From Convolutriloba macropyga (Eukaryota): DNA of 64,000 nucleotides. Location of the stretch: assembly GCF_964194025.1 (NCBI RefSeq), contig NC_134478.1:44082001-44146000 (forward strand), read 5' to 3'. Below are positions 44,401-59,400 of this stretch, piece by piece (the stretch's first letter is position 1; each line of letters begins with the position of its first letter). The translations under genes were made by a program, and so were the position numbers. The notes below the pieces were generated by a model. It was given only the letters and a program-made list of their open reading frames with translations. It was not told the DNA's origin and searched no databases.

Positions 44401-47400
44401 TGATGATTATGAGGTTTGATTATGATATTGTATTAGTATGACGTAGTTCAAACCCAAGTTCAAACGTTGACCTTTTACTGTTATTTAACTAACTCTTATT
44501 ATGCCATCATTTTGTTCACATTATTACATAATTGAACTTTACTACTGAATTCCAATCAACTTTGGAAAAATCTGTTTAATATTTGCCTATATTTGAATGT
44601 AAATAACAAGATATTAAAATTGTAACAGACAAAATAGTTGCTCGCTAATAAACAGTTGTATTACTGTAATAAAGTTTTTACCAGAGGAGATCTTCAGTTG
44701 TCGAAAAAGATTGTCGACTCACCCATTCGAAGATCCAAACCGCTAAAGCTATCCAATAGTGAATAATAACAGAAAAATCGTTAAATTGTAATAGGTGCTC
44801 AGCACAATTTTCGTTCGCTAAATTGTTAAAGCTGTAATGCTGTGAACAACCATCGTTAATTCAGCAACGTTTTCGTTCTTGCCAGAAAAGTTGTTATTTG
44901 AAAGAGTTTACTCGAGTAAACAAATCAATTTGATCAACTAGAATTGCTTTCAACCAAAATGAACAACCACTAGCGAATACTAATTATTTGAGCACATGAT
45001 ATGGTGACAGAACGGACGACAATCGACAGGATAGTGAGCCAATACCTTCGAGAAGATCCTCACCACTGTCAACTTCGGAATTGAAGGGCTAAAACAGAAC
45101 CACGAGCAGTATCCATCCAAATCAGTACAGTTTCAAATCAGTACAGTGAGAACTGCAGCTTGGTGGAATTGTGATTTCATGTGACCAATATCCCTGTGGC
45201 CAGAGCTGACGCTGATAGGCAGACGCAACAACATAGTGACTACAAGGGTTCGTTAGATTTCACCTTTTGTGCAGTGAATTAATACAGTGCTTTTATAATG
45301 ACGCCACACCACAATCTGTTCCTGATATTATTCTGTTGATTTGAATCATCAAAACTGATTTGAAACATTGATCACAGAAAGGAAATATAATTATCAGAAA
45401 TAGTCAAGCTCGAAACTTTTACATTTACTCTAATCTTAAATCTAAATAAGTCTAAGGCCATCAAGCCAAGAGACTACACTTAAAATTCTTAATTCCTCGG
45501 CAAGTTGAACAACTGTTCAACCAACTCAACTACACTACAAAGCTTAAACATTTAAACTTAGAGCACATAAAATGGCACAACCTAACATTGCGTTAAAACC
45601 GTTCAGCGGTACAGGTAAAGAAAGTTTTCGAGAGTTCGAGCATCTTTTAAGAAGCATTATAGCAGTTGCAGCAGTAGCAGGAGCCCAACAGGCTAACTTT
45701 TTGCAATTGCATCTGAGAGATGCAGCTCTGAGATATTTCCAGACTTTACCAGAAGCGACACGCAATGATTTAGCCCTAAGTTTAACGGCGTTAAGAAACC
45801 ATTTCTGCAACCCACAGTTGCAAGAGTTGCATGTAATCAAGTTAGAAAACGTTCGTTTCGACCCAAAAACTGATTCACCAGAAAACTTTCTTGTGTCCTT
45901 GCAAAATATGACTTTGAAAGCTTATCCTGATCCCATACCCGAGGCGTATCCACCCGGAGCGGATCAGGCGGCTCAAGATGCCGTAGATGCTAGAAATGAT
46001 GAGAATTTACGTTTTGCACAACAAGAGAGACAAAATCAGACGAAGCGCTTTTTCAAAAAATGTATGCCTAGCTGGCTTAGAGCAAAGTTGTTGGAACAAC
46101 CAGACAACACAACAGTTGAGGATTTATGCCTCTTAGCTTGGAAGCAACTGACCATCCACGATCTTTGCAAAAAAGAGGACTATATTGACGGAGCTTTTAA
46201 CGAAGTGAGTCCAACAATTTCAGATAATTTGATAAATGCTTTATCAAAACTTAGCCAAACGCAGGAATCTATGGAAAATAGAATGAGCGCTTTAAGTAAG
46301 CAAGTCGAGGAGCAAAATAAACGTTTCGATGAGCAAAAATTTTCACAAAGTCAGAATTTTGGAAATCAGTTTCGGGGAAATGGTTTTAGAGGCTCAAACC
46401 GTGGACAAAGAGGTTCATATAACAACTCAAACTACCGAAGTCGAGGAAATTTTCGAGGCTATGGCAGATCGAGAGGATACAGAGGTTTCAATAACTTCAA
46501 CAACCAGTTCTCATTCCCTGCTCAAAATAATTTCCAATATACTCCTAATGCTCCACAGTTCGCGGGGACAACGCCGCAAAACTTTCAACCGATCCAAGAA
46601 CAACAAACAGCAAGTAATGAGCAACCAGTTGTTCAAGTTTTTCAACCAATTGAGGAAACACATGTTCCTGTTACTCAATATTCCCAAATCATTTGCCATA
46701 TCTGCGGTTATCCAAATCATTTGGCAACTAATTGCTCAATGCGATCACGTGGACGCAGAGGTGGAACAAATTTTCCGTTCCAACGGTCTTCAAAAAACTA
46801 GATAAGCCACAAGTTCCATTAGATACCAGCTCATCAATGCCATCTTTACATGCAAATACTTCACTAGACCCAGACATGCAGATTGAGGATAATATTTGCG
46901 CAGTAATCCCTCTAGAAGGAGAAACTCTCTCCTATGTTAGAATAAAATTTGATAATAGTCTTCGCCGAAGAGCTTTGATTGACTCAAGATCTTGCTCAAA
47001 CGCTATCCCATTATCCTTATTAAATGATTTCGAGAAAAAACAAATTTGTTTTGAGGTAGAATCACCCACTTATAACACTGTTAAGTTAGCTTCAAGTGCC
47101 CCAGTTGTAGTAAAACAGCAAATCAAAGTAAAATTCACAATTGGCAATCATCATTTCAGTGATAGTTTTTTAGTTCTTCCAACAATGAATACCGTCATTT
47201 TAGGAAACCCTTTCTTCAAGAAAAATTTTATCGACATTAGTCCCGCTTATAATTTATTGAAATTACCTGAAATGACAATACAACTTAATGAAATAAAGCC
47301 AAAAGATAAAAAGAGGCAAACATCTAAAAAATTGAAGAAAATTCCCCTATTACTGAGTAAAAAACACGAACTACAGCCCAACTCACATCAATTGCTTGAA

Positions 47401-56400: not shown

Positions 56401-59400
56401 TGAAGATTCGATCCGATCTCGAGAGCTGCGACCGAGTTGAAGCGAAACTTATCGAAGTTAAGCTACCAGACCCCTTGGAGCATTTGATGAGCGAAATTCC
56501 ACAAATCGATCAGATGCCCTACTTCGAGTCTCGAACAACAGCGGGAGTAGAGCTTCTGAGAAAAGTGAGAGCAGAGCTGATTCGAAGCCCAAAAATAAAG
56601 TCAAGTGATGACTTGGTTCAGATTGCGAGACCAATCACTGCTGATATGAGAACGTTAAAGCCTACACTTGTGTCTGAATTCAAAGAATACGTCCCATTAA
56701 AATTGTCTTTGTCGCTTACAGTTATTGTTTTCATTGGGAACATCATTTTACACATTTTGTTTCTCTATCTTTATCACAGATTTAAGATCATTCGTAAATT
56801 TGTTCCATCATTCCTCAAATCAAAAAATGACGACATTGGTGTCAAACCAGTCATTAGTGTGAAGGACAACATTGCTGCTGATGCCATTCCACAAAAATGG
56901 AAAGACAACTATCACATTCTGACTGAAGCCACTAGACCGAGAAGTAAATCTCGCTCACGCACATCATTATCTACGTTGAACAAAACCGTAGAATCAAATT
57001 CAGACCCATGTCTCTTACAAACTTGTTCTCAGCGCATTGAAACTGATCTCTGAATTAGTGCAGTTGTATTGTAAAGTATAATGTGCACTACCAAACTGAA
57101 GAAGAATTGGAGTACCCTTGCAGCAGACCAATAGTTCCTCCTATACTGCGACAGATCACTCTTTCATTAACTATTATTCGGTTGGATTGGAGCAATTTCT
57201 TCTGATCTTATCATATGGTACTATTGTTGTACGATCATTCATTCTTTTCTACTCGCATGTATTCTTTCTAACTGGTATGGAACTGTGGCAAACTTCTACT
57301 CTTTTACGGATTTGAGCTTCGTCGCTGAATGATGGATATCGAAGTTTTTCGAGCCCGGAAGTCTCCCTGAGGAGGGGAGTATGACGTAGCTCAAACCCAA
57401 GTTCAAACGTTGACCTTTTACTGTTATTTAACTAACTCTTATTATGCCATCATTTTGTTCACATTATTACATAATTGAACTTTACTACTGAATTCCAATC
57501 AACTTTGGAAAAATCTGTTTAATATTTGCCTATATTTGAATGTAAATAACAAGATATTAAAATTGTAACAGACAAAATAGTTGCTCGCTAATAAACAGTT
57601 GTATTACTGTAATAAAGTTTTTACCAGAGGAGATCTTCAGTTGTCGAAAAAGATTGTCGACTCACCCATTCGAAGATCCAAACCGCTAAAGCTATCCAAT
57701 AGTGAATAATAACAGAAAAATCGTTAAATTGTAATAGGTGCTCAGCACAATTTTCGTTCGCTAAATTGTTAAAGCTGTAATGCTGTGAACAACCATCGTT
57801 AATTCAGCAACGTATTCGTTCTTGCCAGAAAAGTTGTTATTTGAAAGAGTTTACTCGAGTAAACAAATCAATTTGATCAACTAGAATTGCTTTCAACCAA
57901 AATGAACAACCACTAGCGAATACTAATTATTTGAGCACATGATAATTAGTTTCAGGCTTGTTTTGTTAGGAATTGAAAGTTTCAAGTAGATAATTTGATT
58001 TTAATGCTAATTTGGAGGTTTTTGATCAGTTTTGCTGATTTTTACACGAAATTTAACCTGTTTTTTTGTTTTACTGCTTTCGGTGGGTTTTGAATAAAAT
58101 TTTTTTACTTGAGGAATTTTCAGATACCAATTGATTAAAGTTTTGTTGGTATAAATTTTTTTTTAGGAAAAATGACAGAGAAATTGAGAAATTTTAAACC
58201 ATTTTTCTTATTAATAGCCGCACAGCGATAGCTTGGGCTATTATTGGCCTTCTCTCGTTTTTTTTATTTCGTCGTCATGATTTTTGTTACGACCATATGA
58301 CGTCACAGCCACTTTTTGTTCATTCGTTCATGCAATTTCAACTGAATTGCTTGTGTGACGTCATTTTTCGCTCTTAGTGGAGCGAGTTTTTTTGTTCATG
58401 CGCGTGATTAAATTTTTGGTCACACTTGACTTACCTCACTCTCAAAAATGACTTCCTCAATTTGACTTTTATTTACTTTAATTCAAAGAGATAAGTTCAA
58501 ATGGGTGTGTGTCACTCTAAATGAAGGTTATTTGAGATCAGCTAATAGAGGCAGCAATAACTTATACAGATTTTTAATCAAAATATAACAGATCAGCCTT
58601 CAATGAAAAGACGAATTTTTGATCTGTCTTTTTTACTGTTTTTTTTAGATTGCGATCTACGAATCTATTGCGGCTATTTTCTGGCAATCTGCCAGCGATG
58701 TTTTTTTTTGCAATTTTTCTTTACAATCTTAATAGGTGTTTCTTGCCCTATTATGAGTTGCCCATTGTTCTGCGAGCTTTTCTTTGCTCTAATTGCAAAG
58801 GAACCTTGTTCGGCTTGATGTTTCCTTGTACTATTTAAAAAAACTCATTAAGTTTTTATAGTTTTTTTGTTCAATTTGTTTTTGAATGCCTTTTTTATGG
58901 CATTTGTGGAGGTCTAGGGTTCACAATAGTTGTTCTAGTTGTTTAGTCATAAGTATGGGCAATTTTTCCTTCGAGTCGTTTCCGGAATTCTTCCGGCTAT
59001 GTTTTTTTTTAAGATCTGTTCACACATTTTCATGATTTTTGAAGTCAAATTGGAGTAGTTATTTTGGTCACAACGAAACAGTAAGTAGAGCGTAAAAGCG
59101 AGTGGTTTTGCGGTGTGAGTTTTTTGCTCCAAATTTAAAGTAGAGTGAGAAAACGGTGTTTGAACAAAAATCGCTTTCTCGCTAGTGGTTTTTTGTTCAC
59201 ATGAGGCAATCTCACTTTAATTTGTACTTTTTTTTTCGATCCGATTTTTTAAGAAATTTTTTTCCCAATTCACTCATAGTCCGTTCTAGGTCTGATTTTC
59301 TGTTTAGTCAAAGAAATTTCTTTGAATTGTACGTCAGGACTTGTCCTATGTTTTTTACTTCGTCGAACAAAAAAAATGTTTCCCTTTACCTCATTTTGCC

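Follow-up and report, generated by a model that had tools for sequence, protein, structure and literature searches.

A swappable antisense cargo gene, OTU-fold or JmjC-like, and a Pol-terminal macrodomain in env-bearing Ty3/gypsy elements of Convolutriloba macropyga

Why should a retrovirus-like element of an invertebrate encode, besides Gag, Pol and Env, a relative of the human macrodomain protein TARG1/OARD1 and, on the opposite strand, a protein resembling OTU-family proteases? The question is raised by a Ty3/gypsy element of ~13.5 kb (44437-57944, plus strand) in the genome of Convolutriloba macropyga, within a stretch of 64,000 nucleotides (contig NC_134478.1, positions 44,082,001 to 44,146,000 of the forward strand) that we refer to as the window and to which all coordinates below pertain. 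An earlier note on this DNA interpreted the two extra modules as a possible two-enzyme kit directed against host ADP-ribosylation and ubiquitination. We found that the architecture is real and extends across a clade of elements, and that the stronger finding is not the kit but a swappable antisense slot between pol and env that holds either an OTU gene or, in other families, a JmjC-like gene; the JmjC-like gene in this slot is new here.

The slot stands out in the comparison of two families, A (the window copy and seven others) and B (eight copies), whose gag, pol and env sequences agree at ~95% of positions and which diverge between ~51.5 and ~54.75 kb. At the amino acid level, Gag, reverse transcriptase (RT) and integrase (IN) of the two families are 99% identical, with a synonymous divergence (dS) of 0.04-0.07, and Env is 96% identical, whereas the macrodomains share 50% and the products of antisense exons 2-4 only 39% of their residues, with saturated synonymous sites. 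Similarly, in the elements F_C16 and F_C1, Pol, the macrodomain and Env are 78-87% identical and the antisense proteins 33%; in the tree of antisense proteins, a sister relationship of these two was rejected by the approximately unbiased (AU) test (p-AU 0.028).

Moreover, when 20 env loci absent from the list of antisense exon-2 matches were fetched, so as to avoid selecting for the OTU gene, 17 of them proved to contain a JmjC/cupin-like antisense gene in the place of the OTU gene (L102-L107, L110, L111 and L113-L121, in two subtypes), two carried remnants of the OTU gene and one had neither. Both histidines of the H-x-D/E...H metal-binding motif are invariant in all nine aligned rows of the JmjC-like cargo, the top Atlas matches of which are JmjC clusters at 0.94, and a profile of this gene gave no match in the 40 sequences of the OTU set or in the two OTU remnants. 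The two genes were never found together, and their bearers are interspersed on the IN and Env trees, on both of which a single clade of OTU bearers was rejected (p-AU below 1e-70, quick trees). The mutual exclusion combined with the interspersion indicates, at the level of sequence comparison, that the cargo in the antisense slot has been swapped between families. Several points weigh against the interpretation of the cargo preferred below. A clade uniting the antisense genes of families A and B withstood the AU test (p 0.059); the Pfam scores of the JmjC-like proteins fall below the cut-off; the trees come from quick searches and contain long branches; and all families were sampled from one genome, the RT, IN and Env trees being built from the host genome's own elements only.

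Next to the start of env, five of the JmjC-bearing loci (L113, L114, L118, L119 and L121) contain a small antisense open reading frame (ORF) that begins with a Cys-rich stretch (MCFN...CC.NGT), to which a hydrophobic helix is appended in L114 and L119. Relatives of this ORF, which could be a second cargo, are present in L102-L107, L110 and L111.

In the window copy, the antisense gene consists of five predicted exons on the minus strand, the boundaries of which were read by hand: exon 1 (53959..54278), with two conserved histidines of an HHCC-like motif; exon 2 (53620..53879), with the CxxC of that motif and the OTU catalytic Cys motif; exon 3 (53364..53545), covering the OTU helical region; exon 4 (53105..53298), covering the region of the OTU His, a residue replaced in the window copy; and exon 5 (52942..53026), encoding a basic tail, PRAAKRLR, which we take to resemble a nuclear localisation signal (NLS). 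The intervening GT-AG introns are 65-79 nt long, and their phases yield one frame of 346 amino acids. The antisense OTU-like protein of the earlier note was correctly recognised in its fold, as described below, but its gene is not a single ORF. The positions of the splice junctions recur in the antisense genes of the families displayed. Both the start codon and the predicted catalytic histidine are each present in 6 of the 8 copies of family A; the window copy lacks both, the sister-copy start codon in exon 1 included. Splicing, expression and localisation of the antisense gene are predictions, which also counts against a functional interpretation, and contigs of four sequencing runs of unrecorded kind, which cannot demonstrate absence, contained no splice joints skipping the predicted introns. 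In one family (L068, L070, L073, L081 and L084), exon 1 lies in two frames that break at the identical place in all five copies, suggestive of either an additional intron or a shift common to them.

A genome-wide search with exon 2 produced 195 candidates and 150 scored matches. In all 20 diverged elements fetched through such matches, a sample selected, by construction, for the antisense gene, env adjoins this gene in the identical arrangement; 19 of the 20 have the predicted OTU Cys motif, and 16 of the 17 in which exon 4 was found have the histidine. The ratio of nonsynonymous to synonymous substitution rates (dN/dS) in the antisense exons is 0.22-0.31 for one pair of elements, with values of 0.47-1.35 for private changes. 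A scan of metagenomes with the exon-2 motif turned up no relative. We conclude that, judging from these alignments, the macrodomain and the antisense gene are common to many families and subject to purifying selection, so that the possibility of nested insertions specific to one copy, raised in the earlier note, is rejected: the modules recur across families genome-wide, and the layout is clade-wide. The same data bear on the idea that an ancient nested insertion left the antisense gene behind as a neutral passenger. Such a history would agree with its likely transposon origin and with its broken state in the window copy, but open exons and splice positions persist across families despite saturated synonymous sites, at a dN/dS of 0.2-0.3, and this signal of selection already contradicts the idea, which we deem highly improbable.

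The assignment of the antisense protein to the OTU fold comes mostly from structure prediction. Because the lengths of certain introns are divisible by three, the frame could be run through them, with X at stops, and in the resulting read-through model, which represents the domain of a related family rather than that of the window copy, the predicted confidence (pLDDT) is ~80 in the exons and ~30 in the two intron-derived stretches. The 26 top VIA structural matches of this model (Z>=5.5) are all members of the OTU family, the best of them OTUD3 (Z 10.4, root-mean-square deviation 2.9, 124 residues), from which OTUD1 and nairovirus OTUs are separated by less than 1 Z. When exon profiles were run against 1.8 billion representative sequences, they gave 127 matches, mostly short, exon-sized pieces; among 17 of these that were scanned with Pfam, 13, or 13 of the 16 longer ones, exceeded the OTU cut-off, one fell slightly below it and one had no family, the remaining two being HYR proteins that we discarded as false positives. 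From the model, the antisense protein is predicted to have the OTU fold; the predicted catalytic Cys and His are in place for the clade, the His being missing from the window copy. Conversely, Foldseek ranked OTUs first only at E 0.01 or worse, Pfam detected no OTU domain in the window ORFs, single exons or the read-through sequence, the profile-profile match to host OTUs amounted to 64% over 23 columns only, and the D-G-N-C and W-G-G-x-x-E motifs could not be recovered, their Asp and Trp being out of register; exon and read-through profiles also found nothing significant among PDB sequences. Since neither the Trp of WGG, which is invariant in six ordinary OTUs of the host genome, nor the Asp preceding the catalytic Cys is kept in register, ubiquitin may not be the substrate. 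The deepest OTU families read G-N/K-G-E-C at the Cys motif.

These deviant substrate motifs could also signify that catalysis is secondary and that the antisense transcript, or the HHCC-like N-terminus, lowers expression of the element itself or hinders the assembly of integrase, in the manner of HBZ, the spliced antisense accessory gene of HTLV-1. The antisense position and the retention of the HHCC-like motif across families are in line with such self-regulation. However, few residues of the protein are better conserved than the Cys and His, and the JmjC-like alternative keeps its metal-binding motif, so we consider this explanation very unlikely.

Where did the OTU gene come from? The nearest OTU relatives in the database are not viral by annotation and include transposon-type proteins, Ginger1-like transposases among them. 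The transposon domains seen on the matching proteins are H2C2 (P0114), a Tf2-type SH3 (P0100 and P0106, below cut-off), Pif1 helicase (P0075) and, weakly, DDE_1 (P0116). P0114, which combines H2C2 with OTU, aligns across the OTU domain and the upstream motif at E 4e-11, compared with 0.015-0.09 for four of the six other host OTUs scored. According to the accessible text of Bao et al. (PMC2836005), Ginger1 transposases carry an H2C2 zinc finger and, in some families, a C-terminal OTU domain, the OTU-bearing families having 1-4 introns; a C-terminal OTU and GT-AG introns have predicted counterparts in the antisense gene, and the H2C2 N-terminus has a tentative one in the HHCC-like motif. The cargo differs from Ginger1 as described there in that it has no visible DDE core, GPY/F motif or terminal inverted repeats and lies antisense inside an LTR element; in exon 2, the CxxC leads directly into the OTU region. 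The origin of the OTU gene from a Ginger1-like transposon, with the DDE core lost, thus appears likely from these comparisons. Against it stand the weak similarity (E 0.015, with 48 targets compared) between the antisense N-terminus, with its two conserved His and CxxC, and the P0114 H2C2 finger, the value of 0.5% that hhalign assigned to the HHCC/Ginger1 N-terminal comparison, and a search of the host genome, crowded by gypsy integrases, in which no Ginger1 parent turned up. OTU domains are known also in Helentrons (PMC6431247, as far as its accessible text goes), and L062-L067 contain ORFs of up to 2,500 amino acids with canonical OTU domains that probably belong to Helitron/Helentron-type transposons.

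The second module, the macrodomain (52008..52460, plus strand), is not a separate gene, as the earlier note had it, but the C-terminus of Pol: in 14 of the 31 macrodomain-bearing elements (35 elements examined), it shares one open frame with the integrase core. In the window copy it looks separate because pol there contains three frameshifts and one stop between ~50.1 and ~51.8 kb, two of the frameshifts and the stop falling within the acidic, low-complexity linker between integrase and macrodomain (51070..52007, plus strand). The likeness to TARG1 held up at the level of the fold. A profile of ten relatives matched human TARG1/OARD1 in PDB at E 2.8e-21, and one built from seven degenerate members alone still gave a TARG1-like match at E 1.7e-16. 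The window protein on its own reached an E of about 1 against TARG1, and a Pfam scan of the window ORFs recorded no Macro match; neither Macro nor OTU is matched in Pfam by the window sequence alone, and the two domain calls of the earlier note, which hold with corrections, stand on family profiles and, for OTU, on structure.

The catalytic equipment is another matter. TARG1 catalysis uses Lys84 and Asp125 (PMC9411070, accessible text). In family A, the equivalent of Lys84 is kept, as in the human protein, whereas the loop motifs (AHC-S-D-MG and GCGLD) and the equivalent of Asp125 are lost, and the domain, again in distinction from TARG1, is fused to the integrase; in family B, not even the Lys84 equivalent remains. 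The first loop motif (AHC-S-D-MG) is kept in 5 of the 31 macrodomain-bearing elements of the OTU set and degenerate in the other 26. On the IN tree, three elements without the macrodomain are deepest and the degenerate forms cluster (support 99); the RT tree, unlike the IN tree, places the window family only loosely and leaves the history of the macrodomain less clear. Degenerate forms are nevertheless constrained (dN/dS 0.10 for one pair), so that they probably bind something instead of hydrolysing ADP-ribose. No Pol-length protein bearing this macrodomain region was present among 160 candidates, which is weak evidence.

Loss of the loop motifs and of the Asp125 equivalent, together with the uncoupling of the two modules, leaves the claim of a working macrodomain plus OTU kit unsupported as it was stated, and a catalytically intact kit in the window copy is rejected. 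The three deepest OTU-bearing elements have no macrodomain, and many macrodomain-bearing elements carry the JmjC-like gene in place of OTU. Could the two modules nonetheless form a kit that counters innate antiviral signalling in infected cells, as coronavirus nsp3 or nairovirus L do? Both folds are real, nairovirus OTUs tie with OTUD1 and OTUD3 among the best structural matches, Env is conserved, and catalytic-type macrodomain motifs occur in several families, not only in the five elements of the OTU set but in several JmjC-bearing loci among the env-selected ones, 17 of 20 of which have the macrodomain module. Even so, the prevalence of degenerate macrodomains in the OTU set, the uncoupling, the NLS-like tail and the non-viral annotation of the nearest OTUs all tell against it, and we find a function of this kind distinctly unlikely.

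The location of the macrodomain suggests a different role. The C-terminus of the integrase is where the chromodomains of gypsy elements reside (10.1101/2021.11.30.470311, accessible text), and a role in DNA repair has been proposed for the OTU and Ulp1 domains of Ginger1 transposases (PMC2836005, accessible text). Conceivably, the OTU protein, brought to the nucleus by its NLS-like tail, and the Pol-fused macrodomain would jointly tune DNA-damage signalling through ubiquitin and ADP-ribose at the integration site. The replacement of OTU by a JmjC-like gene and the degeneration of the macrodomain in the window family do not favour such assistance to integration, and rapid turnover with swapping fits a conflict better than a core step of replication; we view this proposal as unlikely.

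Starting from the architecture, the folds, the purifying selection, the mutual exclusion and the incongruent trees that betray cargo swapping, we infer a mechanism along the following lines. A Ginger1-like DNA transposon would have landed backwards in an ancestral element and, having lost its DDE core, become the OTU gene. The antisense orientation would let introns survive reverse transcription, because the packaged genomic RNA is the other, sense strand, and would provide the cargo with a transcript of its own. Template switching between co-packaged genomes could exchange cargoes through the conserved flanks in pol and env. The OTU protein might then enter the nucleus by means of its basic tail and, by cleavage, free chromatin or proteins of the element of ubiquitin or a ubiquitin-like modifier, a similar end being attained in JmjC families through demethylation or hydroxylation. 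The macrodomain would travel with the integrase, ancestrally as an eraser of ADP-ribose and, in the window family, as a non-catalytic binding module. Both cargoes and the ancestral macrodomain would, then, erase modifications of proteins that serve silencing, turnover and the signalling of damage. As for the place of action, the NLS-like tail and the existence of a JmjC alternative suggest the nucleus, in distinction from nsp3 and its role in innate signalling in the cytoplasm.

Accordingly worded with caution, the reading that we prefer, at somewhat less than an even chance, is that this clade carries a Pol-terminal macrodomain and, between pol and env, a backward, predicted spliced cargo gene, OTU-fold or JmjC-like, whose product probably acts in the nucleus, where it would remove marks placed by the host to silence the element or destroy it. 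A bolder version is more tentative still: the recombining slot with its intron-containing nuclear erasers, a Ginger1-derived deubiquitinase or a JmjC demethylase, and the integrase-fused ADP-ribose eraser might form a swappable anti-silencing arsenal, which would be the first accessory system of the complex-retrovirus type outside vertebrate retroviruses to hit three host modification systems.

The remaining features of the window copy substantiate the picture that the earlier note gave of the element itself as a complex, Env-encoding member of Ty3/gypsy, and its accessory modules prove to be conserved. The element is bounded by two long terminal repeats (LTRs) of 565 bp (5', 44437..45001; 3', 57380..57944; plus strand) that differ by 2 substitutions and by a 5-bp target site duplication (TSD), ATTAG, on the left (44432..44436) and on the right (57945..57949). 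In the primer-binding site (PBS; 45002..45010), 9 nt agree with host tRNA-Leu at its 3' end, CCA included, and a polypurine tract (57369..57379) precedes the 3' LTR. A genome scan with the PBS pattern gave 205 matches compared with one for the control, with tRNA-Leu at both of two loci scanned; sequences like the tRNA-Leu 3' end also form long tandem arrays at G000:C11:45.16-45.21 Mb and C1:80.69-80.73 Mb, with a spacing of ~345 bp and ~615 bp. The protease-RT-RNase H-IN order of Pol, with H2C2 and rve, is that of Ty3/gypsy elements. The LTR termini of the window family are not the canonical TG...CA but TAT...ATA (44437-44440 and 57941-57944); several related families have TG...CA, and TG...TA ends and AGT starts are seen as well. 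The window LTR has at least 41 matches in the 1.18-Gb genome; 15 of 19 such places fetched contain a near full-length element, the LTR pairs differ by 2-21 substitutions (13 copies measured), and exact 5-bp TSDs flank 11 of the 16 listed copies, in none of which, families A and B combined, are all three long frames unbroken. The window copy is a recently inserted but broken element, damaged in pol and in the antisense gene, with the gag and env frames open. A non-autonomous derivative of 5.2 kb (L032), 84-89% identical, keeps the LTRs, antisense exons 1-3 and env and has no gag or pol, and L029 and L033 are tandem and inverted arrays of LTR and env 3' fragments.

The gag gene (45572..46801, plus strand) is open and ends with a zinc knuckle (zf-CCHC, E 0.12, below cut-off); a homologous ORF is present in all 10 F elements. 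It is overlapped in a different frame by pol (46732..51223, plus strand; a frameshift near 50.1 kb), whose protease, RT, RNase H and integrase regions include three domains above the Pfam cut-offs: RVT_1 (6e-22), RT_RNaseH (2e-17) and rve (1e-9). The fusion glycoprotein, described as intact in the earlier note, is indeed an open Env of 765 amino acids (54756..57053, plus strand) with an RVKR furin site, a hydrophobic, fusion-peptide-like segment, a coiled-coil region, 11 conserved cysteines and a transmembrane helix; among 51 homologues, 42 have a furin-like site and each of the 11 cysteines is kept in at least 47. A relative 94% identical to the window Env (P0143) scores 29.6 bits against Baculo_F, compared with a cut-off of 24.1; this family exceeds the cut-off in two relatives, is weak in 3 of the 51 homologues and was not found in the window Env itself. 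Env profiles retrieved from PDB nothing or weak matches to the fusion peptide of haemagglutinin HA2 (best E 0.0085), and a structure model from a 6-row alignment (pLDDT 31) was not used. From its sequence features, Env is probably F-type. Just upstream, at 54540-54660, a branch-point-like plus AG motif is repeated twice and is partly common to families A and B, a candidate for env splice acceptors or promoter elements.

The element sits in an intron of the host gene Rpt6/PSMC5 (38.3-60.7 kb), on the same strand, between an exon that ends near 43.9 kb and the last exon (60072..60716, plus strand); the host protein scores best against human Rpt6 (421 bits, the others 383-389). A diverged tandem repeat of ~520-540 bp occupies two places in the window, 33.3-35.6 kb and 62.3-64 kb.

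To our knowledge, the counter-moves of animal retroelements against piRNA and chromatin silencing are a largely open subject, with few element-encoded counter-measures known. The natural alternatives on near-identical backbones, OTU or JmjC cargo and catalytic-type or degenerate macrodomain, open the targets of counter-defence to a comparative test. In addition, the antisense slot illustrates how an element replicated through RNA can retain an intron-bearing gene and, likely, turn a DNA transposon into an accessory gene. A macrodomain and a deubiquitinase are joined within one virus in coronavirus nsp3, and nairovirus L contains an OTU; in the present elements, the modules are encoded on opposite strands and are not coupled, and the likeness to HBZ, nsp3 and nairovirus L is one of general description. 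A full-text search of the literature, to which Repbase, Dfam, GyDB and subscription journals were external and in which JmjC was not a search term by name, returned no account of a gypsy element that combines env with a macrodomain, OTU or JmjC cargo, and the novelty of the architecture is provisional. Fusions of chromatin domains are known in retrotransposons (10.1101/2021.11.30.470311), and the supplements of that report, beyond its accessible text, may list macrodomain or JmjC fusions.

Among known systems, the closest in the backbone are the errantiviruses with F-type Env (Metaviridae; Chary and Hayashi, PMC13524379), with which the present elements share, on the accessible part of that account, the LTR-gag-pol-env order, the Ty3/gypsy domain order, a probably F-type env, the presence of several young copies and tRNA-Leu among the reported primers. 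As in errantiviruses, env lies after pol and encodes a furin site, a fusion-peptide-like segment, a transmembrane helix and conserved cysteines. F-type env is widespread in metazoan errantiviruses (PMC13524379), whereas the Pol-terminal macrodomain and the antisense cargo are features of the present element; the accessible part of that text contains none of the terms 'macro', 'OTU', 'antisense' or 'accessory'. Its first-pass filter for non-insect genomes capped the pol-env distance at 1000 nt and the total length at 10 kb; the present layout exceeds these limits and would therefore have been missed by that pass, as such elements would be by any survey demanding adjacent pol and env. In plants, the gypsy elements Grande, RIRE2 and Retand likewise possess a conserved antisense ORF between pol and the 3' LTR in most copies (PMC7264820); these ORFs are described, in the accessible text, as of unknown origin and function, whereas the gene discussed here has a predicted enzyme fold, introns, a downstream env and two alternative cargoes. 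Finally, the LTR elements of bdelloids have a slot after pol that is occupied by env or by one of several enzymes acquired by capture, a GDSL esterase or a DEDDy exonuclease (PMC5408684, accessible text), and the comparison brings out what is distinctive here: whereas their ORF3 types replace env, the cargo of the present elements adds to env, is antisense and is apparently of the modification-eraser type.

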